From a virus (taxonomy: Duplodnaviria; Caudoviricetes): a stretch of 58,660 nucleotides of DNA. Where the stretch lies: IMG/VR virus record IMGVR_UViG_3300047275_000458, positions 1-58,660 of that record, one strand, 5' to 3'. The notes beneath the pieces are model-generated. The model saw only the letters and a program-made list of their open reading frames with translations. It was not told the DNA's origin and searched no databases. Every line of letters begins with the position of its first letter. Positions within the stretch are counted from its first letter, which is position 1. Below, piece after piece: positions 2,498-36,711 of this stretch. Made by a program: the position numbers and the translations under genes.

Positions 2498-2501
2498 ATG
2501 G

Positions 2502-2530: not shown

Positions 2531-2535
2531 GCGGT

Positions 2536-4653: not shown

Positions 4654-4656
4654 GTG

Positions 4657-4685
4657 TTGACGTAGTAATTTTTTAGTGGTATATA
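4657..4685 (+). promoter_or_regulatory. Sigma70-type promoter for head genes
   Basis: TTGACG, 17 nt, TATATA, with TG extension, in an AT-rich intergenic gap. Confidence 0.6.
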
Positions 4686-4711
4686 TCAATTTGTTTTAGA
4701 AAGGAGTTGCG

Positions 4712-4903: not shown

Positions 4904-5134
4904 GTGCTGCGGATTGACGAAAGAGTCGCCCGCAGTCTGACGTTATTAAGGTCAGAAGAGTTTGCCCCATTGTTAGAGTATTTAGGGAACTGCAAAGCAG
5001 ATAGTCTTGAAAAAATGGCAGTGGCAAGCGAACAAACCCAAATTTACCGGCTTCAAGGTGAAGTTGGTGTGATCAAGGAGTTCCTTGATCTGGTAGGACG
5101 GTCAGGTGAACTGATCGAGAAGTTACGAAGGTAG
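4904..5134 (+). CDS. Small conserved-type protein between portal and scaffold
   Basis: Helical, IYRLQG motif, position typical of podoviral head modules. Confidence 0.7.
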   Translation: MLRIDERVARSLTLLRSEEFAPLLEYLGNCKADSLEKMAVASEQTQIYRLQGEVGVIKEFLDLVGRSGELIEKLRR

Positions 5135-5244
5135 GCAGACCGTTAAGTCGGAGCCCACCACTTTAATTTAACCGTGTAGCAGACCGTTATCGCGTAGCGC
5201 AGACCGTTCAGGCGGAGCGCGAAGTGAGAGTCGGAGCGAAGGAG
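5130..5244 (+). promoter_or_regulatory. Structured RNA leader of the scaffold gene with three GCAGACCG/CGGAGC internal-loop units
   Basis: GCAGACCGTT at 5135, 5179, 5199; CGGAGC at 5149, 5213, 5232; abuts SD AAGGAG at 5239-5244. Confidence 0.6.
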
Positions 5245-5250
5245 ATAGAA

Positions 5251-6237: not shown

Positions 6238-6303
6238 TGATTTAACCGGTGATGGTAGCGGCTATAAACCCTGGTAGTTTTTATTCTTTAGAAAGGAAAT
6301 AGC

Positions 6304-7320
6304 ATGTCTACCATTACCGCAGGCGCAACCTACCCAATTAATACCGTAGGTGGCAACGCAACATTCAACTCCCCCACGGGAGCACAGACGTACGCAGGTA
6401 CCGCATATTCGGGTACTTTTATTCCGGCCCTCTGGTCCGGCAAACTGGCGCAGAAGTTCTACGCCGCTACTGTATTTGGTGAAATCGCTAACACCGACTG
6501 GCAAGGCGACATCACTGGCATGGGCGATACCGTGATCATCAACACGATCCCGACGATCACCATCAACAACTACAGCATCGGTCAGAACCTTGCTTACGAA
6601 ATTCCTGCTCCTTCTACGATCAGCCTTACGATCAATAAAGGTAAGTATTTCGGCGTGAACGTAAACAACGTTCTTGAACTGCAAGCCAAGCCCAAGCTGA
6701 TGGATGTGTTTACTAACGACGCAGCTATGCAGATGAAGATCAATATCGACCAGGACGTATTGGGCGGTACATTTGATCAGGGCGCTGCTACCAACAAAGG
6801 TGCAACTGCTGGTGCAATCTCTAGTTCTTTCAACCTTGGCACCGACGCGGCTCCGATTGCGTTGACCGCCGCTAACATTCTGCAGAGCCTTACTGCTCTG
6901 TCGTCTGTTCTTGACGAGAACAACGTACCTGAGACCGATCGTTGGTTGATCATTGGCCCAACCGAGCGTCAAGTGTTGATGCAGTCCAACCTGGCACAAG
7001 CTCAGTTCATGGGAGACCCCTCCTCGATTCTGCGTAACGGCAAGATCGGACAGATTGACCGCTTCACGGTGTATGTCAGCAACCTGCTGCCCCGCGCCCT
7101 TGCTGGTCAAAACTTTTCAGGGGGTGTTTCGGCTGGTACGGCTAAGCGTCATGCCATCATGGCTGGTCACAAGTCGGCAATCACTTTTGCATCACAGATT
7201 GCTAAAGTTGAAAGTCTCCAGAACCCAAATGACTTCGGCACTTTAATCCGTGGCTTAAACGTTTACGGATATAAAGTAGTTCAAGACAAAGGTTTGGCTC
7301 TCCTACTTGCAGCAGGCTAA
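6304..7320 (+). CDS. Major capsid protein
   Basis: 338 aa, FIPALWSGKL and GDTVII motifs, highly-expressed codon bias, followed by a terminator. Confidence 0.9.
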   Translation: MSTITAGATYPINTVGGNATFNSPTGAQTYAGTAYSGTFIPALWSGKLAQKFYAATVFGEIANTDWQGDITGMGDTVIINTIPTITINNYSIGQNLAYEIPAPSTISLTINKGKYFGVNVNNVLELQAKPKLMDVFTNDAAMQMKINIDQDVLGGTFDQGAATNKGATAGAISSSFNLGTDAAPIALTAANILQSLTALSSVLDENNVPETDRWLIIGPTERQVLMQSNLAQAQFMGDPSSILRNGKIGQIDRFTVYVSNLLPRALAGQNFSGGVSAGTAKRHAIMAGHKSAITFASQIAKVESLQNPNDFGTLIRGLNVYGYKVVQDKGLALLLAAG

Positions 7321-7326
7321 TACCCA

Positions 7327-7353
7327 AGGTGGGGGGAAACCCCCACCTACTTT
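7327..7353 (+). terminator. Rho-independent terminator after MCP
   Basis: AGGTGGGGG-GAAA-CCCCCACCT followed by ACTTT. Confidence 0.7.
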
Positions 7354-7374
7354 AACTAGGAACTGGAGATCTAT

Positions 7375-7743
7375 ATGACGACTGAAAATAGGCTTGTACA
7401 ACTTGGTGTTTGGGATATAGCGGCCCAAGAAATTGCTGGTGGAACGGTATTGTCCACTGGTCTTTCTGCAGCCGGTGCAACCCAAGCCACGGCAACCGCG
7501 ATCACCGCAGATATTTCTGTGTTTGGTACGGTTGCTTCGGGTACTGGCGCAATTCTTCCGGGAACAAACGGTGCAAGCCGGTATGTTGTTCGGAATGGCG
7601 GCGCTAATGCTCTACTAGTTTATGCCCCTGTCGGTGGTACGATGAACGGCACTTTGAATGGCAGTGTTTCTGTTGCTGCTTCAACAAATGCTATGCTTAT
7701 CTCTACTAACGGCGTAGACTATTATTCTTTAGTATCTGCGTAA
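7375..7743 (+). CDS. Possible head decoration / minor virion protein
   Basis: Ala/Thr/Gly-rich, GGAG SD, follows MCP. Confidence 0.55.
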   Translation: MTTENRLVQLGVWDIAAQEIAGGTVLSTGLSAAGATQATATAITADISVFGTVASGTGAILPGTNGASRYVVRNGGANALLVYAPVGGTMNGTLNGSVSVAASTNAMLISTNGVDYYSLVSA

Positions 7744-7747
7744 TACT

Positions 7748-7767
7748 CGGGGGCTTCGGCCCCCGTT
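7748..7767 (+). terminator. Hairpin/terminator with UUCG tetraloop
   Basis: GGGGC-TTCG-GCCCC followed by GTTT. Confidence 0.6.
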
Positions 7768-7779
7768 TAAAAGGACAAT

Positions 7780-8469
7780 ATGGGAACCATTGTAGCCTCC
7801 ACTATTATTGACAAAGCCGCCATTCAGTTACTCGACACCGGTAACGTGCGTTGGACCCGGGCCGAGTTGTTTAGTTGGCTAAATGATGGTCAGCGTCAGA
7901 TCACGCTGATGTCCCCCCAAACAAATAACAAAATTGCTGTTATTAATATGGTTGCTGGCACTCGGCAAACTATTCCTTCTGACGGCTGGCGTTTGCTAGA
8001 TGTATTTCGTTACATGGGCAAACTTGGTAATACTCCGGGTCGAGCAGTGCGTTTGGTTTCACGCGAATTATTAGACGCATATGATCCCAATTGGCATGCG
8101 GCTTTAAAACTAGATACCCCCCAGAATTTTTTGTTTGATGATCAAGATCAAACTGCCTTTTATGTATACCCGCCAAACACTGGAAACGGATATATACAGA
8201 TTAACTATGCTCCTGTTCCTGCGACTCTAACTTTAGAATCACAGGCTATATCAATTAATGACATTTTCCAGACCGTGTTGCTGGACTACATTTTGTACCG
8301 AGCCTGTAGCAAAGATGCTGAATACGCTCCTGGGCTACAATTGGCTGCTGGTTATCTAACTACATTTATGGCTGCGTTTAATCTGCGCGATAAGACGGAC
8401 AAGGAAAATACACCTAACCTTGGCTTGTCTCCAAATATGGTAATTGGTGGACCTGGAGGTGAGTCGTGA
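7780..8469 (+). CDS. Head-tail adaptor / tail tubular A-like protein
   Basis: RWT..EL..WLN N-terminus, YVYPP, LLDYILYRA..KD motifs; position. Confidence 0.65.
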   Translation: MGTIVASTIIDKAAIQLLDTGNVRWTRAELFSWLNDGQRQITLMSPQTNNKIAVINMVAGTRQTIPSDGWRLLDVFRYMGKLGNTPGRAVRLVSRELLDAYDPNWHAALKLDTPQNFLFDDQDQTAFYVYPPNTGNGYIQINYAPVPATLTLESQAISINDIFQTVLLDYILYRACSKDAEYAPGLQLAAGYLTTFMAAFNLRDKTDKENTPNLGLSPNMVIGGPGGES

Positions 8470-9125
8470 ATACAGGCCTTACCGTTGGCTACGAAGATTT
8501 TTTACCGGAAGTTGTGCAATACGTACCGGATGTTCCGGAATTTATTGCTATTAATGCTATTCGCAACTCTTGTATTGAGTTTTGTGAGAAAAGCCGGTAT
8601 TTACAGACTGACTTAACGCCGGTTGATCTGGTAGCAAATCAGGCTATGTACACAGTTATTGTGCCACCTGATACTAAATTTGTAGATATCGTTGAAGCAT
8701 ATGCTAACGATGTTTTACTAATTCCCAAGTCAAGTGAAGAGTTGTCGCGTATTTATCGTTACACAGACTGGCGTTCTGTTGAAGGTCAGCCGATGTATGT
8801 TACTCGAGAAGTTTATACTTCTGTGCAACTTGTACCATTTTTAACGTCTGTTACTGCTGGGCAACAGTTATCTATGCGTATTTCGTACGCGCCTACGCGG
8901 GATTCTTCTGAAATTTCAGAAGATATCTACGAACAGTTTCTAGAATATATTTCGTTTGGTGCACGTTATCGTCTGTATTCTACTCCCAAGCAGCCGTACT
9001 ACGATCGCGGGATGGCAATGGAGTATCTCCGGTTATTCCGGGCTGGTATTAACGAAGCCCGAGTTCGTGTCAACAAAGGTCTGTCGCGTACGTCAGGCCG
9101 TATCGAATATCAGAGGTTCGTATGA
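8466..9125 (+). CDS. Second adaptor-like virion protein
   Basis: AIR..CIEFC motif; coupled to the previous gene. Confidence 0.6.
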   Translation: MNTGLTVGYEDFLPEVVQYVPDVPEFIAINAIRNSCIEFCEKSRYLQTDLTPVDLVANQAMYTVIVPPDTKFVDIVEAYANDVLLIPKSSEELSRIYRYTDWRSVEGQPMYVTREVYTSVQLVPFLTSVTAGQQLSMRISYAPTRDSSEISEDIYEQFLEYISFGARYRLYSTPKQPYYDRGMAMEYLRLFRAGINEARVRVNKGLSRTSGRIEYQRFV

Positions 9126-9451
9126 GTATTATTCGCCTAGTTCAAAACGACAATCTTCCGCAGGTTACGCTGACTATTATTGATAAAGCAACCGGCGATG
9201 CAATTGATCTGTCTAATCCCACCACTACCGTGCAAGTTAAGTTTCGAGCTACGGGGGGCACTACAGTTTTGCACACTCTTCCCTGTTCAAAACCAAATGG
9301 CGGTGGAGATGGCGTTGTAACTTTTTCTTTCCCTGCAAACACTCTTGACGTGGCAGAGGGCACATACGAAGGCGAAATTGAAATTAGTTTCAATAACGTT
9401 ATCCAAACTATTTTTGACGTTCTTCAGTTCTATGTAAGAGCCGAGTTCTAA
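9122..9451 (+). CDS. BppU N-terminal-like baseplate/Ig-like protein
   Basis: I.LVQND..P, AIDLS, G.YEGEIEI.F, F.VRAEF pattern. Confidence 0.6.
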   Translation: MSIIRLVQNDNLPQVTLTIIDKATGDAIDLSNPTTTVQVKFRATGGTTVLHTLPCSKPNGGGDGVVTFSFPANTLDVAEGTYEGEIEISFNNVIQTIFDVLQFYVRAEF

Positions 9452-9452
9452 A

Positions 9453-10352
9453 ATGGGTTTCCCAGTAATACCTACAACAGCCGTTGTAGCCCAAGTTACA
9501 TATGTTGATGCAGGTTATGTTGTTGTATATGACGCAGTAGCGGAAGTTCACGTTGTTCAAGTAGGGTATTTGGCAGAGTATCAAAACCTTACAATTAAAG
9601 CCGCTAGCGTTATCTTCCCGACCCGTTTTGTTGCCGACGTGGTTAACCCGTTGGACGGCACCGTTTTGTCCACAACCAAAGTTCTGGACGATACCCCAGT
9701 CTTACAAGAATTTGTTGGAATTGATTTTGACAAGCCGTTAACTGACTCGTTCTCAATGATCGATCAGGTTGATATCGCATACGATATTGGCAAAGTTTTA
9801 GCAGACACCTATACGACCCTTGACGCTACTACTGTAACTTCGGGTAAAGGTGTAACAGACTCCGTGTTTATGATTGACAACATGGATGGGGATATTGAAT
9901 TTGCCCTGATTAAAACTCTCTCGGAATTACAGTTTGTAACAGACTCATTAATTGCTATTGTTGGTAAACAAATCACAGATACCTTTACCGGCATCGACAC
10001 CGCGTCGCTTACCCTGGGCAAAAACTTTACTGAATCTGTAACAGAATCTGATTCTTCTGTTATTGACTTCGGAAAAAATTCAACGGACAGTGTTGCGCTG
10101 CAAGAGGTTTTAGTTGCTGTTTTAGGTAAGTCTTTTGCGGATTCTTTCACCGGGATTGATACTACGGCATATGCGTTTGCTAAAGTTTTGGCAGATATTT
10201 CAACCATATCTGATCAATCAACGATTGCTTCCTCTTTACAAAAGGCTGATAATGCTGTATTAGATGATGCGGGACTCCTTGTAATGCAGGACTACTGCGA
10301 CATTACATACTTTTTAGAGGATTACGTAGGGCAGTCTCGAACTTTTACATAA
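9453..10352 (+). CDS. Virion fibre protein with ~18-aa GK...D.....D repeats
   Basis: Recurring GKxxxDSxxxxD units. Confidence 0.6.
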   Translation: MGFPVIPTTAVVAQVTYVDAGYVVVYDAVAEVHVVQVGYLAEYQNLTIKAASVIFPTRFVADVVNPLDGTVLSTTKVLDDTPVLQEFVGIDFDKPLTDSFSMIDQVDIAYDIGKVLADTYTTLDATTVTSGKGVTDSVFMIDNMDGDIEFALIKTLSELQFVTDSLIAIVGKQITDTFTGIDTASLTLGKNFTESVTESDSSVIDFGKNSTDSVALQEVLVAVLGKSFADSFTGIDTTAYAFAKVLADISTISDQSTIASSLQKADNAVLDDAGLLVMQDYCDITYFLEDYVGQSRTFT

Positions 10353-22885: not shown

Positions 22886-24706
22886 ATGCCTTCAATAAAA
22901 CTGGAAAACTTTTCAGGAACTATTCCAAGGACGGGCCCTACCCAACTTCCGGATAATGCGGCACAAATTGCCAAGAATGTTCGGCTAACCTCGCTGGAAC
23001 TTCGTTCGTGGCAAAAAGAAACGCGAGTTTATCAGCCCGTTACTAATAACGTTCAAAGTATTTACCGGTTGACTAATGAGGCAACTGGGGCTTCGGTTTG
23101 GCTTGAGTGGGCGGCAAATGTGGATGTGGCTCCAAGTCCGATTGCCGACGATACAGATTTTCGTATTTACTATACTGGGGATACTGCCCCCAAAAAAACA
23201 AACTGGGTTTTAGCAACATCGTCTGGGCTTGGTAGCCCGCCATTTCCTGACGCCTGGTTATATCTTGGCGTTCCTGCCCCCACAACTGCTCCCACCCTAG
23301 TATCTACTGGTAGTGGCGGTACTGCAGAAACTCGGGCTTATGTCTATACCTATATATCTACGTTTGGTGCTGTAACAGAAGAATCCGCACCCAGCCCTGC
23401 GGCTACAGTAAATACTCACGTTTCAGGTTCAACAGTTACTGTTTCTGGATTTGCAGCCGCGCCAACCACAGGCTACAACATCACTCACTGCCGTATTTAT
23501 CGTACGGTTACTGGCGGGGCGACAGTTAGTTACCAGTTAGTAGCAGAAATTCCCATTGCCACAGCAAGCTATGCCGATACGTTAGCAGTTGCTAACTTAG
23601 GACCCTTGCTGCAAACGCAAAGTTGGAATACACCCCCTACTGATCTACAGGGCATTGTGTCTATGCCTAACGGCATGATGGCAGGATTCCGAGACAACGA
23701 AGTCTGGTTTGCTGAACCGTACTACCCGCATGCTTGGCCGGATCTATATACCCTTGTGGTGGACTCTCGAATTGTTGGCTTAGGTGTGTATGATACAACG
23801 CTAGTTGTTTTGACCGAACGCCAGCCATATCTAATTACTGGTTCTAGCCCTCTGGCTATGTCTCAGACTAAGTTGCCAGTTCCACAGCCGTGTGTTTCGA
23901 AACGATCTATTGTGTCAGATCAGTTTGGTGTTTTGTATGCAAGCCCCAATGGCTTAGTCTCTATATCTCCCAGCGGCGTAGATGTTATTTCTCAGCGTTT
24001 GTACACACGTATCGAATGGCAAGCCCTAAACCCCAGTTCTATACAAGCCATGTTGTACAACAATCAGTATGTTGGCTTTTATACAGTCGGGGTAGAGACT
24101 AATGCAATTGTCCTCATCCGTAACGATATTCCGCCGTTATCTCAGTTGACCTTTAGTGGTCGTGCTCCATACGTAGATAAAAGCACCGGGAATATTTACG
24201 CTGTATCCACAATTGATAATGATATTTATCAGCTAGACGCTAGTGTTATTGACAACAGTTTGTTCGAGTGGAAGTCCAAACAGTTTGTTATGGCAAGCCC
24301 TACCAACTTTGGAGTGCTTAAAGTTCGAGCTGACTATGATTTAATTAGCAACACAAATGTTTATAATCAACTTATACAGGCAATTATTGCCGCTAACACT
24401 GCGTTGTGGGCTACATCGTCTAGCAATCTACAAGGGGTAATAAATTCAACCCCCCTAAATGTATACACACTTAATGGTTCTATTTTGATGGATTTGCCTA
24501 ATATTGCTGATACTAGGTCGGTCAACATTTTTGTATATGCCGAAGGCGTTTTGATTTATCAAGCTGCAATGACAAGTAACGAACCTGTCCGGATGCCAGC
24601 CGGGCAAAAAGCGTATATTTGGGAAGTGCTGATTTCTGGTAATGTGCCTGTGCGTATGTTTGGTATGGCAACAGATGTAACAGAATTGAAGAGCCTTGTA
24701 GAATGA
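22886..24706 (+). CDS. Tail tubular B / DNA stabilisation (P22 gp10-like) protein
   Basis: F.G.IPR.....LP..AAQ.A.N, FAEPY.PHAWP, CVSKRSIV, W.SK.F; precedes ejection genes. Confidence 0.7.
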   Translation: MPSIKLENFSGTIPRTGPTQLPDNAAQIAKNVRLTSLELRSWQKETRVYQPVTNNVQSIYRLTNEATGASVWLEWAANVDVAPSPIADDTDFRIYYTGDTAPKKTNWVLATSSGLGSPPFPDAWLYLGVPAPTTAPTLVSTGSGGTAETRAYVYTYISTFGAVTEESAPSPAATVNTHVSGSTVTVSGFAAAPTTGYNITHCRIYRTVTGGATVSYQLVAEIPIATASYADTLAVANLGPLLQTQSWNTPPTDLQGIVSMPNGMMAGFRDNEVWFAEPYYPHAWPDLYTLVVDSRIVGLGVYDTTLVVLTERQPYLITGSSPLAMSQTKLPVPQPCVSKRSIVSDQFGVLYASPNGLVSISPSGVDVISQRLYTRIEWQALNPSSIQAMLYNNQYVGFYTVGVETNAIVLIRNDIPPLSQLTFSGRAPYVDKSTGNIYAVSTIDNDIYQLDASVIDNSLFEWKSKQFVMASPTNFGVLKVRADYDLISNTNVYNQLIQAIIAANTALWATSSSNLQGVINSTPLNVYTLNGSILMDLPNIADTRSVNIFVYAEGVLIYQAAMTSNEPVRMPAGQKAYIWEVLISGNVPVRMFGMATDVTELKSLVE

Positions 24707-24961: not shown

Positions 24962-25387
24962 ATGAAATCAGTTATTTACGGGCAGGACAAGCAAGTAATT
25001 GATTGGGTTGGAAAACAAGTCGGAGAAGACGACTTTGGTAGCGGGGCGATAGGAATTGGGCTGGAAGAAGACGGTGAACTAATAGCTGGTGTAGTTTTTA
25101 ATTTGTACACAGGAGCGGGTATTTCAATGCATGTCGCCGCAGTACCGGGCAAACGCTGGATGACACGGGAGTATTTATGGCGCTGTTTCGCGTACCCATT
25201 TATCCAACTGAAGTGCAACCGCATTACCGGCCTTGTTCGCGTTGACAATATAGAAGCACAAAAATTTGATGAGCATTTGGGTTTTAAGCGAGAAGGGGTA
25301 CTTAGGCGAGCATGCACAGATGGTACAGATATGATTGTATACGGAATGCTTCGGGAAGAGTGCCGATTTTTGGAGATTAAACGGTGA
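24962..25387 (+). CDS. GNAT acetyltransferase-fold virion assembly protein (T7 gp13 / P22 gp14-like position)
   Basis: YPF.QL.C.RITG....N..A......LGFKREG.LR. Confidence 0.8.
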   Translation: MKSVIYGQDKQVIDWVGKQVGEDDFGSGAIGIGLEEDGELIAGVVFNLYTGAGISMHVAAVPGKRWMTREYLWRCFAYPFIQLKCNRITGLVRVDNIEAQKFDEHLGFKREGVLRRACTDGTDMIVYGMLREECRFLEIKR

Positions 25388-26514
25388 AATACGATCATTT
25401 TTCCATGTTGCCTGAACAGGCATTTCAATCTCGGAACGGATTGTTCGGAGGTATGACGCTTGAGGGTGGTAAAGGCGGCGGCGGTGCTCCCGCTCCAGAC
25501 CCTAATATTGGTAGGGCTCAGCGTGAAATGGCAGCAATTTCTAAGGAGTATTTAAATTCTTGGAAAACCGAAGTTTGGCCTACTCTTAAAGAACAATCTT
25601 TAAAACAAGAAGCTCGAGCAGACGAACAGTTTGAGCTAGACCGTGCCCTTCAAGATTTGCAGATGAAGTCCGCAAAAGAAAGCATGGAGCGATATGAAAA
25701 ATATGGATATCCGCTTCAAGAAAAAATTTTTGAAGAAGCCGAAAAAGCAGGTGGTGCCGAAGATCAAGAAAAGCAAGCCGCTCTTGCCCTTGGCGATGTG
25801 CGGTCTGCAACCCAACGTGAAGCACGTAATTTAGCTTTGCAACAACAAAGTTTTGGTATTGATCCTAGTTCTGGTCGATATCAAGGCATGATGCGAGCTA
25901 CTGGTGTTGATACTGCTGCAATGGAAGCGGCTGCTGCTAACCGTGCCCGTACTGCTGCCGAACAACTTGGTTGGGCTAAGCGAATGGACGCAACTGCTTT
26001 GGCTCAGGGTCAGTTTGGTAATCAGGCAACTTCTACCGGCCTAGCCCTTACTGCAGGTAATCAAGCACTTATGTCCGGACAGATCCCAATACAAAACGCT
26101 GGTGCTATGACTCAAAACATGGGCAGCGCTTACGGCGGGGCGATGCAAGGATGGAATCAAGTTGGACAACTTGGCGTCGATAAATACAAAGCTGACGTTC
26201 AAGCCTATAGTGCTAAACAACAAGCTGATGCGGCATTTGCTTCCGGTATTGGGCAAGCAGTTGGTACTGCTGCTGGAATAGGTATAAGGAGCTCTGATCG
26301 CCGACTCAAAACAGATATTCAACGCCTTGGTACACTAGAAAAATGGGATATTGGCGTTTACTCATTTAAATATGTTGATTCCCTTAAAGACAAATACGGC
26401 GATAAAACTTATGTTGGCGTTATGGCTGACGAAGTTGAACAAGTCCTACCTGAAGCCGTTATTACTATGGCTGATGGATACAAAGCCGTTAATTACGATT
26501 TAGTACTGGAGTAA
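25384..26514 (+). CDS. Ejection/pilot protein with a GGKGG motif and a C-terminal peptidase S74 chaperone domain
   Basis: TLEGGKGGGG near the N-terminus; SDRRLKTDI ... GVMADEV ... V...DGYKAVNY. Confidence 0.75.
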   Translation: MKYDHFSMLPEQAFQSRNGLFGGMTLEGGKGGGGAPAPDPNIGRAQREMAAISKEYLNSWKTEVWPTLKEQSLKQEARADEQFELDRALQDLQMKSAKESMERYEKYGYPLQEKIFEEAEKAGGAEDQEKQAALALGDVRSATQREARNLALQQQSFGIDPSSGRYQGMMRATGVDTAAMEAAAANRARTAAEQLGWAKRMDATALAQGQFGNQATSTGLALTAGNQALMSGQIPIQNAGAMTQNMGSAYGGAMQGWNQVGQLGVDKYKADVQAYSAKQQADAAFASGIGQAVGTAAGIGIRSSDRRLKTDIQRLGTLEKWDIGVYSFKYVDSLKDKYGDKTYVGVMADEVEQVLPEAVITMADGYKAVNYDLVLE

Positions 26515-28113: not shown

Positions 28114-31100
28114 ATGGCAATATATTTTGACGATAGTGGTGGTAGTGACGCTTTTAATCCTGCAGATTGGGGCGTTTCTACAAAACCTGCAAAACGTGGT
28201 GTTTTAGGTGCAGCCAACGACTATGTTATTAATGCCGCAAATCTTATATTAGGTGGTACTAAATCTATTGTTGACTTTGCTCAACCGGGAACCGAACTGG
28301 CTTCTCAAATTGAAGCATTAATACGCGAAGGCCAAGAAAAACAATCTGATGTAACAAAACGGGCTAAACAAGAACTTGGGCAATCCATCGAAGAAGGTGG
28401 GATGGAAGCCTTAAAAGGTGTTGGCAAATATGTTGTTCAGTCTCCTGGCCTGGCTATCTCCGAAGCAATTGGGTCGTTTGTTGTTCCCGGTATCGCTATT
28501 AAAGGTGCAGGACTATTAGGTCGGGCTACTGGTGCGGGTGAGCGTGCGATTGCGGCAGGCCGTGCTGCTGGTCCTTTACGTGCTGCTGACGAAGCCGCTC
28601 TTGCGGCTCGAGGTGTTCGGCCTTACGAAATAACGGCTGGTGTTGCTTCTGGTGCTGCACTTAGTGGCGGTGATGCGGCTGGTGATGCATATCAACAAGT
28701 CTACGAATCTCAAATTAATTTAGGGGTAAACCCTGATGAAGCAAAACGACTTGCGACAGAAGCAGCCCGCAAGGCTAGCATAGTCCCTGCTGTGATAGGT
28801 GGAGTGACCGGCATACTTGGTGCTGAAGCACAATTATTTAGCGGCGCAAAACGAAGTGGCTCAAGCATTCTAAAGTCTGCTGGGTCGGAAGCCCTTCAAG
28901 AAGCCGTTGAAGAAGGCTCAACTAAATTGTCTGCCAACCTTGCTGCTATGCAGTATGGCGTTGATACAACCCCCATGCGAGGCGTGGTGGGTGCGGCTGC
29001 TTTAGGCGGCGCGCTTGGTGGTATCACTGGTGGAGGTGTTGCGTTTGCTACACGTCGTCAATCTGGTAGTTTGTTGCAAGCCTCTAACGACAACCTTACT
29101 GGTAATTTAACTCCGGACGACGACGGTATTAAGTCTGCCATCAATGAAGATCGACAGATGTCGTTGTTCTCGGCTGAGGAACTGATGCCGCAAGTTGTAG
29201 CGCGGGAATCAGAATTGATTAACCCATACAACGTAGGTGGCTATGTCGGAGCGCAACAGGCTGGCTTGGATACGGGACTACAATTTACAAGTACCGGTGG
29301 ACAACAAAATATGGTATTTGGTGCTGGTCCTGTTCAGCAAATTCAAACGGGTACAGGTCAAGCGGCGGCTCCAGCAGCCCAAGCCACTCAACCGCAAGCG
29401 AAACCTACTGCGAGCGGACAGCAGACACCGCAGGTCGATCCGCAAATTCTTTCAGAAACCGGTCAGCGGTATGGACTAACTCAGTCACAAATGCCCGGAA
29501 CTGGCGCAGCCGTTGTTAATATTGGTGGACGTAATGTCTACGGTACTAATTCTGTTAAACAGTTTTTGACTGAGTTGACTATTGCCGACGAAGGTAAGTC
29601 CGATATTCAACGGCAAATGGAAGCCGCAGTATTTAAGTCTGGCACGATGTCTGTACAACCTACGATTACGGCTAAAGCCCTGTCGGCTGCTGCAACCAAG
29701 CAACTAGAGAAACTACAGATTAACGAAGCCGATTCGCTGGAAACGGCTGCACAGATTCTTAACGACCAGATTCGAGCATTGGGCGACGCCAATAAAAAAG
29801 CCACAGATAAAAATGTGGAAACATTGGCACGCACATACGAAGCGCTTACGGGGAGCGTATCTCCGGCATTTACTCAAATTTTAGAAGGAGCAACAAATGT
29901 ACAAAATGGACAAAAACAGCAAGTGTCTACCGGGGTGGGAGCAGTTTCAGTCGGTGGAGGAGCGCCAGCGGGCGGTACAGGACTTAATGTTCAACCCACA
30001 AACGTTCAATCCCAGCAACCAGGAAGCCAGCCTAGCGGACAGAACATCGTCCAAAATGTCCCCGGCGGAGAAGGTGGAGCACGGCCTGGAGGTGGTGGAC
30101 CCATCGACACCAATGTTTCTGTTGGCAGCGAAGCCGCGCCGTCGCAAGTAACAGAAGGCACTCCGACTGAAAAAGAAGACTTTGCCAAAAAGTTATTTGT
30201 TGACGTATTTGGCGAACGCGATGGTCTAATTGTTTACGATTTGTTAGAGGTCACTGGAAACCAATCTGTTATTGCGGCTAAGTACGATATTGATCGTACT
30301 GTGGTGTCTAAGATCAAAAACAAGTATTTTGAGTCCAACACTGGTAAACAGTCCAAAGCTCTGTGGTTTAAGCCTAAGTATCAGGCAGCGTTGAAAAACG
30401 AAGTCATTGCTCAAGGCAGGTCGTTACAAGATGTGTATACATTCTTGTCTAACGAGTCCGAAGCCCAGAAGGAAATGGAAGACCTGATTATTAAGGACTT
30501 CGAAGTAGAACCTGCAGTAGAAGGGGCGGAAGATACAACTCCTACATCGGCTGAAGAACAAGGCGCAATTGCTCCTGTCATGGGAGAAGGGCTTCTCGAA
30601 GACAAATCAGAAACTACAGCAGACGAGCGAGATACAAATCTGACGTTTGTGGGATCTGAGAAGGGCTTAAGCCAAACTAGCGATGTTAGTGAAAAAAGTA
30701 ACTGGCGTTCGTCCATAAAGAAAAACCGCAAGAACCTGAAAAATGTTAGCGATGCGCATTTACAGGATGCGGCTATGGCTGCGCTTGAGGGTAAAGTAGA
30801 CGATAAAACTTTGTTGGAAGATATTACTGCCGAACTTAAGCGACGTGAAACCGTTGCCCGTGCTAGCAAAGCTGGGCGCGAAACTATAGAAACGCAGGAG
30901 GAAGAAGATGCCGTTCAAGAGCCAAGCCCAGAAAAAGTGGATGTACGCAAACAAGCCGGAGATGGCAGAGCGGTGGCAAAAAGAGACACCGAAAAACAAG
31001 CCGTTGCCGAAGAAGATGAAGTCAGCGACGAACTCGCAACCCGCGAAGAAGACGCCGAAGATGCGTGGAACAGCCTAGTCACAAGTAAAGAAGTTGAAGC

Positions 31101-34100
31101 CCTTGGCTTGGCAGAGTGGGTCGAACTGTCTGAAGCCCAGCAAGCACTAGTCTTGCGTCTGGATGATCCGTCTACGCTAACCATGCGTAACGTTGAGAAG
31201 ATTCTTGCGCTTGAAGACGATACCCGCACTATTGACGTTGAAGCCCGTGAAGTTAGCCCGGGTGAGCGTCGTATGATTGAAAACGGAATAAAACAGCTTC
31301 CAAACACACAAGTTGCTACCCTAGAAAAACATTACGGGGCGAAGTCTGGAACAGCAGAGTTTATTAGCAAACTCGCTACTGATGTAACTAACTATATTAA
31401 CAAAGGCGCTGAGTCTGTTGCCGCTGCCATCCGTGGGATTATTAAGTCCATGGCAGAAGGTATGGTTGCTTTTGGCCTAGTATTTAACCCGGCTATTCAA
31501 TACAGTGGTTTTGACTATAACGTTGAAGCCATATACGAAAAAGCAAAAGAACAGAAAACGCAAGTACCAGCTAACGCTAAAGCCAAGATGTCTCCTCTGG
31601 CTCAGGCTGTGTACCGCGATATGGCTGCTACAGCCAAGAAAACCGGCAAGGGCTTTATGATTGCCGACAAACAAGCGGGTATGATCCACGCGTTTAACGC
31701 TGATGGCAGTCTACTAGTCCAAGACAGCGCTTTGTTTGGCAAAGATATCGGTGACAAAGTAACTACGTCTTCGTTCCAAGGTGGGCCAAAGATTACCCCC
31801 GCCGGGAAATTTACGCTTAAAGTTTCTAAAGATGAGAGTTATGCTGGCGGTTATGTGCTTGGCATGGAAGAAACGTACGATGCAGGCGAAGGCAGTTGGG
31901 TGGCTATCCACGCCGCATACTTAGGCAACACCGGTGAAAAACGCCTTGAGCGTTTAGCCAGTGGAGACGCCAAGGAAAAGCGTGTTAGTTATGGATGTAT
32001 TAATACTACTCACGACACATTCCTTAACAAGTTTAAGCCAAACCTCGATAAGTTTGATGGTGGTATGGTATTTGTGCTGCCCGAAGAAACAGTAAATATT
32101 GCCGCTGCTAAAACAGGCAAGGTTCAGTTTTCTAAAAAGGTAGCCGCTGGAGGTTCAAAAGCCTCAGACGTTCGGAAAAAACTTCGTAACTTTATTGGCG
32201 CAGAAAATGAAGCTCGGATGCAGGTGTATCAGAGTATTGACGAAATTCCTGTTGACATACAGAAAAAAGTTGAAAAAGCTTCTGGCGAAGCCATTACTTC
32301 GAATACGCAAGGATTTATTGTAGATCGGAAAGCATATCTAATTGCTGACAATATTAGCCCCGGAACTGAACGGGCTGTGTTTATGCACGAAGTTGGTTCC
32401 CACCTGGGTTTGGAAAATATCCTTACCGAAGAACAATTTGACAAGTTAGTAGACACTCTTCTTGAATGGTCTGGTCGGCAAGATGATTCTCTAGAATGTA
32501 CTTTAGCTACTAAAGCGTTGGTTCGAGTTATTGACGCTAACAGCACAGATGCGCAACGTAATAGTGAAATGGTTGCGTATTTTATTGAAGAAGCGCTGCT
32601 TGCTGGTGTCAACCCTAAAGCTGTTGCTGAAGGAACAGGGTTTGCGTCTTGGTTCCGTACACTATGGTCAGCGTTTAAGCAGGGTATTCGCAAACTGAAT
32701 TTGTTTAATCCAGACAAAATGAATGCCACAGATATTATTAATATGGCATACGGAGCAGCACGCTTGGAGATTGCGGGTACTTGGCACGGGACTGCTGCTG
32801 AGTTTCGCCGGTTTAATCATATGTATATGAGTACTGGTGAAGGGGCTCAAGCTTATGGCTGGGGAACGTACTTAGCGCAACGGTTTGGTATTGCTTACGA
32901 ATACATGACTTCTGATGTTAGTAGAAAAACAAGAACTGAATTTACTTGGCAAAATCCAGAAGCCGTTCAAGTTTATTTTGAAAATCATCCATTAACTAAC
33001 ACAAAAGCTAAAGAAAAAATTTACGATCTAAACACTCAAGGGCTTTTAGTTCAAAAAGGATATCCTATTGAGCCGGAAGATTTAGCACGAATGTATGTAA
33101 GTGGTCATTATTTCGACAGTGCTAGCATTTCTGCTAAGCCTTTGTGGGTTCCAGTTACTGTTAACGGCAAAACATATACCACAAAAGATTTACAGTGGTC
33201 AGAAAAACAAATTAAACCTGCTGGAACAATGCTTCGGGTAGATGTTAATGCTAAGCAAGACGAACTGCTTAACTGGGATATCTCTCTGGCTAAACAACCT
33301 AGTATCTTAAACAAACTTGAAAAAGTATTTACAGAAGAGCTAGAAGTAAATTACGGCTTACGGTCTTGGATTACTAACCAAATAACAAAGTCTTTGAATT
33401 TTTCAGATTTAACTGGGCAAGAGTTGTATTTAACTTTGCAAGAAATTATTAAAAATTACAACCTTGCTCGGTATTACAAGCAAGACATTAGTTTGGAACA
33501 GATGTTCTTTATTGATGCAATAGAAGAAAATGCAGCACTTAAAGTTCAAAAGTATGAAACTGATGAAGTTGTATCAACATTTTTAAATGGCATTGGTATT
33601 AAAGGTCTTAAATTTTTAGACGCTCGCAGCCGTAAAAAATCAAAATCTTTCTATATTCAAAAGCTAGAAGAAGCTGAGTCAATTATTGAAGATTTTGAAG
33701 CGTGGGATGGTAAAACTCCTCGCTCTTACCCTTCTTGGGCAAAAAATACTGAGAAGCAAGCAGAATATATTGCAGATCTCAAATATAAATTATCTCAGGC
33801 CCCAGAAGATTCTGAATTAACACGCAACCTTGTTGTGTTTAGCGACAAAAATATTGTACGCGTAGCATCTTTGCAAGGGGGCAGTCAACAGGAAGTTAAG
33901 TTTAGTATTCGCCCTCTTGACCGTGGCACAGTAGAGCGCAATATCCGCAAACTTCCTTCTGGGCTACAGGGGCCAACACGCTCAACGTTTATTTCCCTGG
34001 CAAATTTTGCCCGTAAGGGTATGGATTACGTCGCATTTACCCCGGTGATTATTGACCGTGCGGTTAAGGCTGGTCTGACTGCTGCCAACAAATACCTCCG

Positions 34101-36711
34101 TCTAAACCAAGAACGGGGTCAGATGGCAAAGCAGATGGAAGAAGATGTACAGCGTATTGTGGATATGTACGCCAACGTGCCTGCAGAAAACCGTGGCACG
34201 GGTGATCGTAGCGTAAACCGTTACATATTTGACTCCACCCGCCGTGGGGTATGGGGGTTCCAACCTACCAATCGCAGCGACAAAGTAGATGTTGACCCTG
34301 AGTTGTCAATTCGCTTTAAACGTCTATCTCCTGAAGCCCAAGCATTTATCCGTGCCGTATTTAAGCATGGCGATGACATGCTGGCGCTAAAAAAGAAAAC
34401 CGTCATGGAGTTTACAAACTCGGAGTACGACGCAGCCATCGAGCAAGCCAAGAAAGACGGCGACGCCAAACTAGAAGCCTCCCTGACGGCAGACAAAAAA
34501 GCTGACCTTAAGAAATTTGACAGCTTGTTTAAGTTGCGTGAGGGTATACCCTATGCTCCGATCAAGCGTATCGGTAAGTACGTAGTGATTGCCAAGTCAG
34601 CAGAATACCGACAGGCAGAGCGTGATGGTGATGCTAAAAAGTTGCGTGACCTTGAAAAAGATCCTGACCATTACCATGTCACATTCAAAGATACGGAAGC
34701 CCAGGCTCGTGCGCTGCAACAATCTTTGGTTGATGAAGGACATTTTGGCGGGGATGAGGCTGTAGAAATAGGTGAGCGCGATCAATACGAAAACGAGTTA
34801 TACGGCGGTAACAATATCCTGCAAGCCTTGACTAAACTGCGTTCACAGATTGACGCCCGGGCAAGTTCTGAAAAAGCTGATGAGCGTGCGGGTGCTGCCA
34901 CGATGCGTCGTATTGTAACGGACTTGTACTTAGAGTCTTTGGCAGAAGCCAGCGCTCGGAAAAACGAAATGCGTCGTAAGGGCGTATCTGGTGAAGTTGA
35001 TATGCTCCAGTCGTTTGGGCTACAAGGTGCTGCCGATGCGCGGTTTCTGTCCGCCCTCCAATATGATAAACAGACGCAAGATGCTATTCAAGAAATGCGT
35101 GGACAAGTACGCACAGGTGGTGGTGATAGGTTACGGAAGTCGGAGTTGTATAACGAACTGATGGCGCGGTATGCACAGACGTTAGACTTTGAACCCATGC
35201 CGGTCACTCAAAAGCTTAACCGATTAACCTCTGTATGGTTCTTGGCGACTAGTCCGGGATACTACCTACAAAACTTAACCCAGCCATACATGATGTCGTT
35301 ACCTTTGATGGCGGCAAAACATGAAATTGGTAAATCTTCGACGGCACTGTTTAAGGCATATACTGAACTGGGCGAAGTATTTAAGAGCGCCAAGTTGTTT
35401 GAGCAGCAGTTTGACTACAGTAAAGTGCCTGCTGATGTTCGCCAAGCCATTAAGACTTTGGTTGATCGAGGCCGTATTGATATTGGTATTGATACCGAAC
35501 TTGGCAACGCACGGATTGAAGGTGCTGGTGCATTTGAAGACCGCTGGAATAAAGTAGATAAAGGTCTACGGCTTGCTGTTCAGAAAGTAGAGATTCTAAA
35601 CCGTCTATCTACTGCGATTGCAGCCTATCGGTTAGAAATGGCAAAGTCTGGTAGCGCCGCTAAAGCCCTGCAGTATGCGGACGACATTCTTGTGGATACC
35701 CATGGCGACTACAGCGCGTTTGCTGCACCGCGAGCATTTAATACAAATATTGGTAAAGTTGCTCTCCAGTTCCGTAAGTTCCAGTTGATCCAGTTAAGCT
35801 TGATGTCAAAGCTAATTAAAGATGCCTACACAGGTAAAGATCGAGCCGTTGCCGTAAAAGCCCTAACTTACATCCTAGGTAACACGGCTGTTATGGCTGG
35901 TGTGCTTGGGTTGCCCGGTATGTCAGCCATTGCTTGGATACTTGGTCAGTTACTAGGCGATGACGACGAGCCGTTTATTCTTGAGAAAGAATTGCGGGAG
36001 TATATTGGGGACGAGGATCTTGCCAACATAATTACGCGTGGCGTACCTACAGTGGCGGGGGCAGACTTGTCGGGTAAGATTGGTATGGGAAATATGTTGT
36101 CAGTCTTACCGTTTACCGAGATTGACAAACTAAATGGTGAGAAAACTGCAGAGATTATTGGTACGTTGATAGCGGGCCCTGCTGGTGGATTGTTGGCCCG
36201 GGGTGCGGATGGCGCTGCATACATGGCTAACGGCGATTACTGGAAGGGTTTGGAGTTGATGACCCCGAAGGGTGTTGGGGATGCCATGAAGGCTTATCGT
36301 ATTGCGAATGAAGGTGTAACCAACAATCGTGGGGATGTGTTGTTACCGCCCGAAGAACTAGGCGATCTGGACACTATTTGGCGGGCGTTTGGTCTTTCCC
36401 CTGTTAAACAGACAGTGCGGTCTGCTAAGCAAGGGTTTAAAATAGACTACGAAGCAAAATACGAAGCTCAGTCTGGGGAAATTAAGAGAGACTATATTCG
36501 GGCAGTCAAGGAAAATGATAACGAGGCCAAAGAAGAGGCTCGTCAGAAATGGAAGAAACTGCAGGAAGCACGCAAGCGCAATGGCTTTAAAGTTCAGCCA
36601 TTGTCTGAGTTGTTGACTTCTCCAAGAGAGCAGCGTAAGCGTGAGCGTAAGACCGTAGGGGGTGTGCAGTTTGACACCGGATCACGTAGGTTTGTGGAAG
36701 GATTACAGTAA
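28114..36711 (+). CDS. Giant polyvalent internal virion protein (L,D-transpeptidase-like, metallopeptidase, ART-like and PLxRFG-like domains)
   Basis: IHAAY...SYGCIN; MHEVGSH; WHGT...TGEGAQAYGWGTY; YAPIKRIGKY. Confidence 0.8.
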   Translation: MAIYFDDSGGSDAFNPADWGVSTKPAKRGVLGAANDYVINAANLILGGTKSIVDFAQPGTELASQIEALIREGQEKQSDVTKRAKQELGQSIEEGGMEALKGVGKYVVQSPGLAISEAIGSFVVPGIAIKGAGLLGRATGAGERAIAAGRAAGPLRAADEAALAARGVRPYEITAGVASGAALSGGDAAGDAYQQVYESQINLGVNPDEAKRLATEAARKASIVPAVIGGVTGILGAEAQLFSGAKRSGSSILKSAGSEALQEAVEEGSTKLSANLAAMQYGVDTTPMRGVVGAAALGGALGGITGGGVAFATRRQSGSLLQASNDNLTGNLTPDDDGIKSAINEDRQMSLFSAEELMPQVVARESELINPYNVGGYVGAQQAGLDTGLQFTSTGGQQNMVFGAGPVQQIQTGTGQAAAPAAQATQPQAKPTASGQQTPQVDPQILSETGQRYGLTQSQMPGTGAAVVNIGGRNVYGTNSVKQFLTELTIADEGKSDIQRQMEAAVFKSGTMSVQPTITAKALSAAATKQLEKLQINEADSLETAAQILNDQIRALGDANKKATDKNVETLARTYEALTGSVSPAFTQILEGATNVQNGQKQQVSTGVGAVSVGGGAPAGGTGLNVQPTNVQSQQPGSQPSGQNIVQNVPGGEGGARPGGGGPIDTNVSVGSEAAPSQVTEGTPTEKEDFAKKLFVDVFGERDGLIVYDLLEVTGNQSVIAAKYDIDRTVVSKIKNKYFESNTGKQSKALWFKPKYQAALKNEVIAQGRSLQDVYTFLSNESEAQKEMEDLIIKDFEVEPAVEGAEDTTPTSAEEQGAIAPVMGEGLLEDKSETTADERDTNLTFVGSEKGLSQTSDVSEKSNWRSSIKKNRKNLKNVSDAHLQDAAMAALEGKVDDKTLLEDITAELKRRETVARASKAGRETIETQEEEDAVQEPSPEKVDVRKQAGDGRAVAKRDTEKQAVAEEDEVSDELATREEDAEDAWNSLVTSKEVEALGLAEWVELSEAQQALVLRLDDPSTLTMRNVEKILALEDDTRTIDVEAREVSPGERRMIENGIKQLPNTQVATLEKHYGAKSGTAEFISKLATDVTNYINKGAESVAAAIRGIIKSMAEGMVAFGLVFNPAIQYSGFDYNVEAIYEKAKEQKTQVPANAKAKMSPLAQAVYRDMAATAKKTGKGFMIADKQAGMIHAFNADGSLLVQDSALFGKDIGDKVTTSSFQGGPKITPAGKFTLKVSKDESYAGGYVLGMEETYDAGEGSWVAIHAAYLGNTGEKRLERLASGDAKEKRVSYGCINTTHDTFLNKFKPNLDKFDGGMVFVLPEETVNIAAAKTGKVQFSKKVAAGGSKASDVRKKLRNFIGAENEARMQVYQSIDEIPVDIQKKVEKASGEAITSNTQGFIVDRKAYLIADNISPGTERAVFMHEVGSHLGLENILTEEQFDKLVDTLLEWSGRQDDSLECTLATKALVRVIDANSTDAQRNSEMVAYFIEEALLAGVNPKAVAEGTGFASWFRTLWSAFKQGIRKLNLFNPDKMNATDIINMAYGAARLEIAGTWHGTAAEFRRFNHMYMSTGEGAQAYGWGTYLAQRFGIAYEYMTSDVSRKTRTEFTWQNPEAVQVYFENHPLTNTKAKEKIYDLNTQGLLVQKGYPIEPEDLARMYVSGHYFDSASISAKPLWVPVTVNGKTYTTKDLQWSEKQIKPAGTMLRVDVNAKQDELLNWDISLAKQPSILNKLEKVFTEELEVNYGLRSWITNQITKSLNFSDLTGQELYLTLQEIIKNYNLARYYKQDISLEQMFFIDAIEENAALKVQKYETDEVVSTFLNGIGIKGLKFLDARSRKKSKSFYIQKLEEAESIIEDFEAWDGKTPRSYPSWAKNTEKQAEYIADLKYKLSQAPEDSELTRNLVVFSDKNIVRVASLQGGSQQEVKFSIRPLDRGTVERNIRKLPSGLQGPTRSTFISLANFARKGMDYVAFTPVIIDRAVKAGLTAANKYLRLNQERGQMAKQMEEDVQRIVDMYANVPAENRGTGDRSVNRYIFDSTRRGVWGFQPTNRSDKVDVDPELSIRFKRLSPEAQAFIRAVFKHGDDMLALKKKTVMEFTNSEYDAAIEQAKKDGDAKLEASLTADKKADLKKFDSLFKLREGIPYAPIKRIGKYVVIAKSAEYRQAERDGDAKKLRDLEKDPDHYHVTFKDTEAQARALQQSLVDEGHFGGDEAVEIGERDQYENELYGGNNILQALTKLRSQIDARASSEKADERAGAATMRRIVTDLYLESLAEASARKNEMRRKGVSGEVDMLQSFGLQGAADARFLSALQYDKQTQDAIQEMRGQVRTGGGDRLRKSELYNELMARYAQTLDFEPMPVTQKLNRLTSVWFLATSPGYYLQNLTQPYMMSLPLMAAKHEIGKSSTALFKAYTELGEVFKSAKLFEQQFDYSKVPADVRQAIKTLVDRGRIDIGIDTELGNARIEGAGAFEDRWNKVDKGLRLAVQKVEILNRLSTAIAAYRLEMAKSGSAAKALQYADDILVDTHGDYSAFAAPRAFNTNIGKVALQFRKFQLIQLSLMSKLIKDAYTGKDRAVAVKALTYILGNTAVMAGVLGLPGMSAIAWILGQLLGDDDEPFILEKELREYIGDEDLANIITRGVPTVAGADLSGKIGMGNMLSVLPFTEIDKLNGEKTAEIIGTLIAGPAGGLLARGADGAAYMANGDYWKGLELMTPKGVGDAMKAYRIANEGVTNNRGDVLLPPEELGDLDTIWRAFGLSPVKQTVRSAKQGFKIDYEAKYEAQSGEIKRDYIRAVKENDNEAKEEARQKWKKLQEARKRNGFKVQPLSELLTSPREQRKRERKTVGGVQFDTGSRRFVEGLQ
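29897..30151 (+). CDS. Overprinted +1-frame protein (84 aa) inside the giant gene
   Basis: AAGGAG, 6 nt, ATG; the host frame is a low-complexity linker; ends AAKPRRRK. Confidence 0.55.
   Translation: MYKMDKNSKCLPGWEQFQSVEERQRAVQDLMFNPQTFNPSNQEASLADRTSSKMSPAEKVEHGLEVVDPSTPMFLLAAKPRRRK
30908..31078 (+). CDS. Overprinted +1-frame basic protein MPFKSQAQKKWMYANKPEMAERWQKETPK... (56 aa), not in the ORF track
   Basis: AGGAGG, 6 nt, ATG; resembles a small phage protein type I recall as free-standing (unverified). Confidence 0.75.
   Translation: MPFKSQAQKKWMYANKPEMAERWQKETPKNKPLPKKMKSATNSQPAKKTPKMRGTA

Follow-up and report, generated by a model that had tools for sequence, protein, structure and literature searches.

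A small basic protein of a phage 'MPFKS' family is most likely encoded within, and in the +1 frame of, a giant virion-module gene

The DNA analysed here (the window) is the whole 58,660-nucleotide (nt) stretch of the IMG/VR virus record IMGVR_UViG_3300047275_000458, a segment of a tailed-phage genome (Duplodnaviria; Caudoviricetes). It contains a giant gene with an open reading frame (ORF) of 2865 amino acids (aa), and within this gene lies the short ORF that is the subject of this report (Table 1). The short ORF is contained entirely in the longer one, on the same strand and in a different frame; the offset between the two starts is 2794 nt and (30908 − 28114) mod 3 = 1, which places the short ORF in the +1 frame. 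A preliminary description, made from the letters alone, had reported an AGGAGG, 6 nt, an ATG and a 56-aa peptide, embedded out of frame in the giant gene, and all of these were found exactly as written.

The two products of the overlap are of opposite character. The 56-aa small protein has an isoelectric point (pI) of 10.55, with 15 Lys/Arg against 3 Asp/Glu residues. The host reading across the nested site is ...QEEEDAVQEPSPEKVDVRKQAGDG..., and this segment (host aa 932–988) has a pI of 4.19, with 18 Asp/Glu against 8 Lys/Arg residues. Its 'DAVQ' is the frame-shifted reading of 'MPFK'. The host frame had been called an acidic linker in the preliminary description; such it is, and it also behaves as an unconstrained shadow of the small frame, its selection ratio being about 1 (see below). 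The DNA around the nested site is A-rich, and no step in G+C content marks an insertion. Other same-strand nested ORFs within the giant gene resemble noise. One of them, at 29897–30151 (+), is also in the +1 frame and encodes 84 aa from an ATG preceded by aaggag; its peptide, too, is noise-like.

Table 1. Positions of the nested ORF, its host gene and other genes in the window
Feature	Position	Strand	Remarks
Probable nested gene, encoding a basic 56-aa member of the 'MPFKS' family of small phage proteins	30908..31078	+	+1 frame of host; stop TAG 31076-31078
Shine–Dalgarno (SD)-like AGGAGG	30896..30901	+	6-nt spacer (aagaag) to ATG 30908; sits in host codons Q-E-E
Conserved core, residues 1–28 of small protein	30908..30991	+	Invariant N-terminal MPF.S..Q and predicted helical hairpin
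Basic tail, residues 29–56 of small protein	30992..31075	+	Length and sequence vary across the family (alignment)
Host-frame putative 'shadow', acidic linker DAVQEPSPEK..., host aa 932–988	30907..31077	+	Host-frame translation
Host gene, giant 2865-aa virion-module or polyvalent-type protein, frame 0	28114..36711	+	ORF and PHROG matches
Internal virion protein	22886-24706		phrog_511
Virion structural protein	25384-26514		Upstream of giant gene
Terminase large subunit	1100-2497		
Portal or adaptor	2536-4653		
Scaffold-position protein	5224-6237		
Major head protein	6304-7320		

When the 56-aa peptide was searched against a library of 5.8 billion clustered proteins, the homologues that the preliminary description had expected were found: 133 proteins of 30–98 aa matched at E-values (E) up to 1, the best at 1.4e-12. 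Twenty-nine of these small relatives were aligned (alignment A1). Eight columns of A1 are invariant (M1, P2, F3, S5, Q8, M12, P17, and A20), identity over the whole alignment is 43–76%, and the window protein has all eight invariant residues. The MPFKS motif of the preliminary description is the true consensus of a family of free-standing small phage proteins, in which it is followed by a basic tail. A hidden Markov model (HMM) of the family was scanned over all six frames of the window. It found a single site, the ORF described here (i-E 5e-23, 69.6 bits), and no second copy of the small gene in the window. This single strong site and the 133 family matches rule out a chance ORF. A blastn search in distant mode with window positions 30000–32000 gave no match in GenBank phages; hence, the signal that is shared lies at the protein level, in the +1 frame.

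AlphaFold2, supplied with A1, predicted a two-helix hairpin (helices at residues 6–15 and 17–26) with a predicted local distance difference test (pLDDT) value of 90–95 over residues 1–30. The block means were 90 for residues 21–30, 79 for residues 31–40, and about 61 for residues 41–56, and no secondary structure was predicted beyond residue 26. The model thus describes the small protein as a putative two-helix hairpin with a basic, probably disordered tail. The best structural matches in BFVD were uncharacterised phage proteins of 44–85 aa (E 2e-4; template modelling score, normalised to target length, up to 0.91). A weak match to phrog_1375, a family of unknown function, aligned residues 3–28 with positions 17–42 of the 70 in the profile (E 0.027, 15.9 bits), while the nested peptides of two relatives described below (L001 and L002) gave no match to PHROGs. 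No family was matched in Pfam by P0001, P0002, the 29 family members, the scaffold-like hosts, or the fusion proteins (the last two are introduced below), and a sequence profile search of the PDB with the small protein gave nothing below E 0.1. In the ESM Atlas, a feature search returned unnamed viral clusters; the nearest Pfam-bearing cluster (score 0.82) carried PF11450 (DUF3008) on 15% of its members. DUF3008 is likewise an uncharacterised family of small proteins, and its N-terminal motif may be similar. The lead comes from the ESM Atlas only, and membership in DUF3008 is unsupported: PF11450 was unmatched by P0001 and by 29 of the 29 A1 members even at E up to 10. A literature search, supplements aside, found no paper that treats the MPFKS family or the nesting of a gene within giant or scaffold genes, and none mentioning DUF3008.

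Most of the family is known from metagenomes, and at least 380 stretches in IMG/VR encode a relative of the small protein. Eighty of these loci were kept and 78 were classified (L065 and L066 were dropped because the start pattern missed their ORFs). The gene is not nested at 52 of the 78 viral-contig loci, so free-standing homologues, on whose existence the preliminary description had made its reading depend, are present. At 18 loci it is nested in same-strand ORFs of 1260–3571 aa, and at 8 it is nested near the 5′ end (host aa about 40–105) of a conserved gene of ~400 aa. In every nested case the host frame is open and the host codons begin at position +2 of the small ORF, that is, the small gene is always +1 of its host. 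The 52 loci include L043 and L046, in which the module is the N-terminus of a longer protein, as well as L012, L016, L061, and L063, whose apparent mid-size hosts were rejected, their open frames being spurious ones of high-GC DNA (this was checked for L012, in which the match to terminase begins downstream of the small ORF, and judged by eye for the other three). The order of genes around the ~400-aa host in L060 is terminase, portal, host, and virion structural protein (phrog_13704), and a place between portal and structural gene is the usual one for a scaffolding gene. Since this host matches no PHROG or Pfam family, 'scaffold-like' is a positional label. Outside IMG/VR the family is rare. 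The collection of bacterial and archaeal genomes yielded five family loci, all in contigs of metagenome-assembled genomes (MAGs), and a Cytophagales MAG contig carries a further nested copy, in a 2691-aa ORF.

Eight records of GenBank phages, seven of them from Streptomyces phages, were matched at E up to 0.01 by P0005, a close free-standing member. The window peptide gave weak matches (E 0.3–0.7) to MW202828 and to 68 records of Flavobacterium 'elemo' phages. The 40 matches shown all lie under giant coding sequences, with no other annotated feature there: the giant coding sequence alone in MW202828, and 'structural protein' alone in 39 of the 39 Flavobacterium phage rows. In MW202828 (L001), a 43-aa ORF with the family motif was found in the +1 frame of an ORF of more than 2900 aa; the same holds for Flavobacterium phage elemoE_10-3D (L002), where the motif-bearing ORF has 42 aa. 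The nested gene is therefore unannotated in the matched GenBank phage records, those of the Flavobacterium elemo phages included. To our knowledge, genes fully nested on the same strand go unreported by gene callers. It may be noted that a truncated second copy of the nested 5′ end is present in L002 at 3187–3230 (host aa about 1062), upstream of the intact copy by 132 codons. The two share their upstream context and first six residues; the truncated copy stops after 10 codons, and it looks like a relic of a local duplication. A subfamily with two conserved cysteines (A-C-Y ... W-D-C-K-K-W), which might form a metal site or a disulfide, is nested in both kinds of host (L001:6001–6132, L002:3583–3711, L093, L126, and L154).

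The loci described so far were found via the small protein, and relatives were therefore also gathered via the host proteins only. The alignment of the giant N-domain (A3) holds 11 loci, three of which are cut off before the nested site. All eight evaluable relatives carry the nested ORF, in the +1 frame and at host aa about 860–1080, even where host identity is as low as 27%. The start codon is ATG in four of them and GTG in the other four. L170 and L173 correspond to the contigs of L045 and L013, and L166 and L167 are identical at the ORF, which leaves seven distinct copies, five of them new. Each of the GTG-started copies (L164, L166, L167, and L168) has AAGGAG 6–8 nt upstream. Conservation of the ORF (with its start) and of its SD sequence in homologous giant genes, the other point on which the preliminary description had staked its reading, was thus observed, the SD sequence being kept in the SD-using lineages. 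For the scaffold-like host, the best 80 of at least 562 relatives were aligned over the C-domain (A2); two are truncated and 78 are evaluable. An intact, ATG-started ORF of 36–52 aa is present in the +1 frame of 68 of these genes; the ORFs fall into several subfamilies, all beginning M-P-(F/L/I). In one of the 78 (L130:2773–3816), the module is joined in frame to the scaffold-like C-domain, as the N-terminus of a 348-aa ORF. This gene is either a natural fusion or an indel variant, and it links the module functionally to the scaffold-like host family. Another protein, P0009 (70 aa), has ~28 N-terminal residues typical of the scaffold-like host joined in frame to the small protein, which may reflect an indel variant, or else a sequencing error, in the stretch that separates the two starts.

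Free copies are tightly packed in operons. Ten large neighbours of such copies, selected by size, comprise six portal genes, one terminase, one scaffold, one ribonucleotide reductase, and one tail fibre gene. In L014 the gene order is portal, small gene, scaffold, and in L012 the small gene directly precedes the terminase. The module was also found in 59 longer proteins of 99–1076 aa, at the extreme N-terminus in 43 of the 46 that were read; there it is followed by a basic stretch and then by unrelated C-terminal parts. By our own reading, Gly/Ala-rich hydrophobic segments are present in some of these C-terminal parts, and an HExxH motif in some. According to precomputed Pfam assignments, one protein has DnaJ and another LigD_N. 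Its extreme N-terminal placement, together with the head-gene neighbours, indicates that the module behaves as a portable N-terminal unit linked to the head module. We infer that the small protein takes part in head assembly, or is a packaged, DNA- or portal-proximal protein or adaptor. A complex prediction for the window portal (69-row alignment) and residues 1–42 of the small protein, run without controls, scored 0.00, which speaks neither for nor against an interaction.

Selection on the two frames was estimated from approximate, OLGenie-style ratios (pNN/pNS for the small frame and pNN/pSN for the host frame, with 95% bootstrap intervals). The small-frame ratio was 0.14 (0.07–0.25) for the scaffold-nested subfamily ascertained through its host (n = 23), 0.48 (0.35–0.63) for all giant-nested copies (n = 26), and 0.55 (0.33–0.88) for the host-ascertained giants plus the window (n = 8). 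The corresponding host-frame ratios were 0.88, 1.11, and 0.96. Free copies (n = 46) gave 0.30 (0.21–0.40) for the small frame and 1.21 for the untranslated frame. The nested small frame thus appears to be under purifying selection, with confidence intervals below 1 in the host-ascertained sets as well. The host frame, with ratios about 1, seems to be without purifying selection of its own across the overlap.

The distribution of differences over codon positions was also examined. In giant-nested copies (n = 20), the pairwise differences per site were 0.35, 0.27, and 0.44 at small-frame positions 1, 2, and 3, and in free copies (n = 47) they were 0.29, 0.22, and 0.56. Position 2 of the small frame, which is position 3 of the host, is the least variable, and this is the opposite of what host-frame coding would lead one to expect. 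Nested copies had a mean identity of 0.56 when read in the small frame, compared with 0.39 for the host frame and 0.43 for the third frame, which is never translated. When the window was compared with ten relatives, identity was 0.42–0.67 over the first 36 residues of the nested ORF, 0.29–0.54 over the overlapped host segment, and 0.07–0.34 over the flanking 120 aa of the host. Being better conserved than the host flanks, the nested gene is an island of conservation.

Signs of independent translation were sought upstream of the nested starts. An SD 4-mer at −17 to −5 precedes 14 of the 26 unique giant-nested copies, against 2.4 expected from their own host ORFs, and an SD 5-mer precedes 13, against 0.9 expected; none of 200,000 simulations reached the observed count of either. 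The start codon is kept in all 26 copies (23 ATG, 3 GTG). An in-frame stop lies upstream of the nested start at a median distance of 6.5 codons (6 codons in the window), and its closeness argues against entry by frameshifting. With the SD enrichment, it points to internal initiation rather than to a shift of ribosomes into the frame. The ORF at 30908–31078 is most likely a live overlapping gene, with the acidic 'linker' of the host as its shadow. Since the nested copy is under apparent purifying selection and is the only copy in the window, it is probably still functional rather than a relic.

Taken as a whole, the observations are best explained by a live nested gene that has a product of its own and casts the host linker as its shadow, a reading that we consider highly probable. 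The nested gene would be transcribed on the mRNA of the giant late gene, and the internal SD sequence and ATG would allow the separate translation, in the +1 frame, of a strongly basic protein of 56 aa. This product would consist of the conserved N-terminal MPF.S..Q motif, the two-helix hairpin, and a Lys-rich tail. Read in frame 0, these 171 nt would give the giant protein an acidic, unconstrained linker, for which freedom from stops would be the sole requirement. The nesting may have arisen when the reading frames of host genes were extended over a small gene that already existed, a step that should be easy in this frame because host-frame stops are always removable by changes that are synonymous in the small gene.

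As to this origin, the host-frame stops depend solely on the wobble bases of the small gene: TTT-AAR gives TAA in the host frame, whereas TTC-AAR gives CAA. Several free copies carry the TAA, and in L026, L042, L047, L078, and L080 the upstream ORF ends exactly there. Reading across the small gene is thus one synonymous change away, which can explain the constant use of the same frame. The giants of L009 and L081 are 42% identical across the site (aa 154–1506); L009 has the nested gene, and in L081 the 2639-aa giant (2072–9991) is followed, 10 nt after its stop, by a free small gene at 10001–10153. On a tree of the small protein (136 rows, 40 columns), context is clustered, with at least 17 changes against about 59 when shuffled, and the starred branches force at least three changes for 'giant' and at least three for 'scaffold-like'. 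One starred clade unites Cys-bearing copies from giant hosts (L001 and L002) and scaffold-like hosts (L093, L126, and L154). A history in which flanking genes fused over a free copy was also considered. For all 60 loci that are not giant-nested, whether the copy is free-standing or lies in a mid-size ORF, the flanking ORFs were searched by blastp against the N- and C-parts of the giants, and L081 was the sole match. As its small gene follows a whole giant gene, this history is unsupported.

The small family is wider than the overlapped segment of either host and the host frame is unconstrained, which would make the host linker the younger reading. The engulfment of a pre-existing gene, proposed in the preliminary description, is in keeping with this wider distribution and with the context switches; its direction, however, does not follow from the poorly resolved tree. 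The opposite history, with the same function today, is that the gene arose de novo by overprinting of an acidic virion-protein linker and later escaped to free positions and other hosts. A Glu-rich linker read in the +1 frame does give a Lys/Arg-rich peptide like the tail, and overprinting is reported to be the usual origin of viral overlapping genes (reviews PMC8227390 and PMC3494269); nor does the unrooted tree speak against it. However, the family occurs free in unrelated contexts and as the N-terminal module of many unrelated proteins, far beyond either overlapped segment, its core, which has W, M, Y, and F positions, is predicted with confidence to fold into a hairpin and is not a low-complexity sequence, and the host frame shows no constraint of its own. 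We consider de novo overprinting an unlikely origin.

Several points weigh against a live nested gene older than its host linker. Nine of the 78 scaffold-like genes lack the nested ORF, as does the L081 giant at the site where it is homologous to L009, so the ORF is dispensable at that position. Twelve of the 26 giant-nested copies are without an SD sequence and have low-GC, A-rich leaders. One of the 12 is L002, of a Flavobacterium phage; Bacteroidota rarely use SD sequences, which may account for such copies, the host group being known for L002 only. Constraint is weaker in giant-nested copies (0.48–0.55) than in free ones (0.30); it may have been relaxed in part, or the host frame may compromise it. 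The ratios themselves are built on uncorrected p-distances and on pairs that share ancestry, with a bootstrap over codons only. The tree is unrooted, with 9 of its 132 inner branches starred, and gives no direction, and a Lys-rich peptide is what de novo overprinting of a Glu-rich linker would also yield. Selecting the ten neighbours by size introduced a bias toward portal and terminase genes. Finally, Pfam, the PDB sequence search, and BFVD produced nothing that is named.

Some of these points would also fit a fossil, that is, a once free gene that was overrun by the giant gene and is now unexpressed and decaying, though still open. Relics do exist, as the truncated copy in L002 (open for 10 codons) illustrates, nine scaffold-like genes have lost the ORF, and the constraint on giant-nested copies is the weaker one. 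Against this, all 26 giant-nested copies keep their start, those whose sequences were inspected are open for 42–98 codons, with a mean identity of 56% among 20 unique copies, and every evaluable N-domain relative has the ORF, even at the lowest host identity. With small-frame intervals that exclude 1, enriched SD sequences, and a single copy in the window, a fossil is very improbable.

Recoding, in which ribosomes slip by −1 in the Lys-rich tail into the host frame, or host ribosomes shift by +1 into the module, is in our view just as hard to sustain. In-frame counterparts exist, in the form of L130 and of proteins of up to 1076 aa (P0161) that begin with the module, and many nested tails are runs of Lys codons. 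However, no canonical slippery heptamer was seen by eye in the tail of the window, the upstream stop is so close that ribosomes could hardly enter from the host frame, and the basic tail is equally present in free copies, where there is no host frame to shift into. That the host-frame peptide (D/N-A-V/I-Q-E/K...V-G-E-G) is the functional element, for example a cleavage or targeting site, with the +1 ORF as its by-product, is barely credible: the motif does recur recognisably in both host families, both of them head-module proteins, but it is the exact frame-shifted reading of conserved small-protein residues, the host frame has a ratio about 1, an identity no higher than that of the never-translated frame and its least variation at host position 3, and in free copies the small frame is conserved even though stops abound in the other one.

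The arrangement that we favour, a live gene read in the +1 frame of its host, has parallels. Rz1 of phage lambda is likewise a small gene lying wholly inside a larger one (Rz) on the same strand, in the +1 frame and with its own start, and embedded, overlapped, and separated arrangements of Rz and Rz1 occur among related phages, as they do for the MPFKS gene. Unlike Rz1, the MPFKS protein is without a signal peptide or lipobox Cys, and its host is a giant virion or scaffold-position protein and not a lysis protein; unlike in Rz/Rz1, the small frame is constrained and the host frame is a free linker. An identity as a spanin o-component (Rz1-like) was rejected, as the window peptide lacks Cys and its N-terminus is not hydrophobic.

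The closest published parallel that we found is the ShiLan insertion in the methylase genes of actinophages. There, too, a stop-free stretch of the host frame is tolerated as a loop or linker while a complete gene is hidden in another frame, and its presence varies among homologous hosts, as here between L009 and L081 and among the scaffold-like genes (9 of 78 without it). The hidden ShiLan gene is a homing endonuclease, which explains its own mobility, whereas the MPFKS gene encodes a basic protein of 36–98 aa that is negative for a nuclease in Pfam. A homing-endonuclease identity was excluded, since P0001 and the 29 members have no Pfam domain and the protein (36–60 aa) is too small. Unlike ShiLan, the MPFKS gene is nested repeatedly, and always in one frame, within two host families that are unrelated, and it is also found free-standing and as an N-terminal module.

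Viral overprinted genes in general (reviews PMC8227390 and PMC3494269) likewise yield two proteins per stretch, one conserved and the other biased in composition and probably disordered. In classic overprinting the long frame is ancestral and the short one novel; here the distribution suggests that the short gene is older and the linker novel. An analogy, of function only, may be made with the N-terminal capsid-targeting sequences of packaged phage proteins such as the T4 internal proteins. These also are short, conserved N-terminal modules on many unrelated cargo domains, and their genes lie in or beside the head module, as MPFKS genes do. Unlike the capsid-targeting sequences, the MPFKS module also occurs as a stand-alone protein of 36–60 aa.

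Two features of the arrangement are unusual: the short nested frame is conserved while the long host frame is a free-running linker, and one small gene has three settings: on its own, inside two unrelated virion-module genes (in the same frame in both), and as a module at the N-terminus of many larger proteins. An abundant, uncharacterised head-module family is thereby flagged, for which the Flavobacterium elemo phages are cultivable carriers. A testable rule for finding hidden genes also follows, namely that the acidic linkers of giant phage proteins be read in the +1 frame. The preliminary description had suggested that hidden basic genes may often have such linkers as their shadows; this is so far borne out only for the present gene family, in two host families.

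The +1/0 relation of the frames turns Lys codons into Glu codons, so that the basic product (pI 10.5) and the acidic linker (pI 4.2) form a co-encoded pair. One might speculate, although we hold it to be doubtful, that MPFKS is a self-contained cassette that lives in, and has entered more than once, the disordered linkers of packaged or head-assembly proteins, its basic product and the acidic linker being a charge-complementary pair. If so, the small protein might bind to the shadow that it casts, or might serve in trans as a version of the N-terminal module that many cargo proteins carry. More hidden genes would then be expected in the linkers of giant phage proteins, a reservoir that has been overlooked.

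The giant host gene lies in the late module, downstream of the genes for an internal virion protein and a virion structural protein. The C-terminal 870 aa of its product (aa 1984–2850) match phrog_10089, 'DarB-like antirestriction' (E 1.5e-63), and its N-terminus matches phrog_18222 (E 3e-38); phrog_11358, phrog_30335, and others (PHROG families of giant proteins) are also matched. By this homology and its position in the structural module, the host appears to be a giant polyvalent or virion protein. Elsewhere in the window, a DNA polymerase gene and a primase-like gene lie on the opposite strand. A Pfam search of the giant protein gave no match. By eye, it contains an HExxH motif (FMHEVGSHLG) and a SYGCINTTHD sequence that resembles an L,D-transpeptidase-type catalytic motif, and Gly-rich hydrophobic stretches were seen near its N-terminal region.

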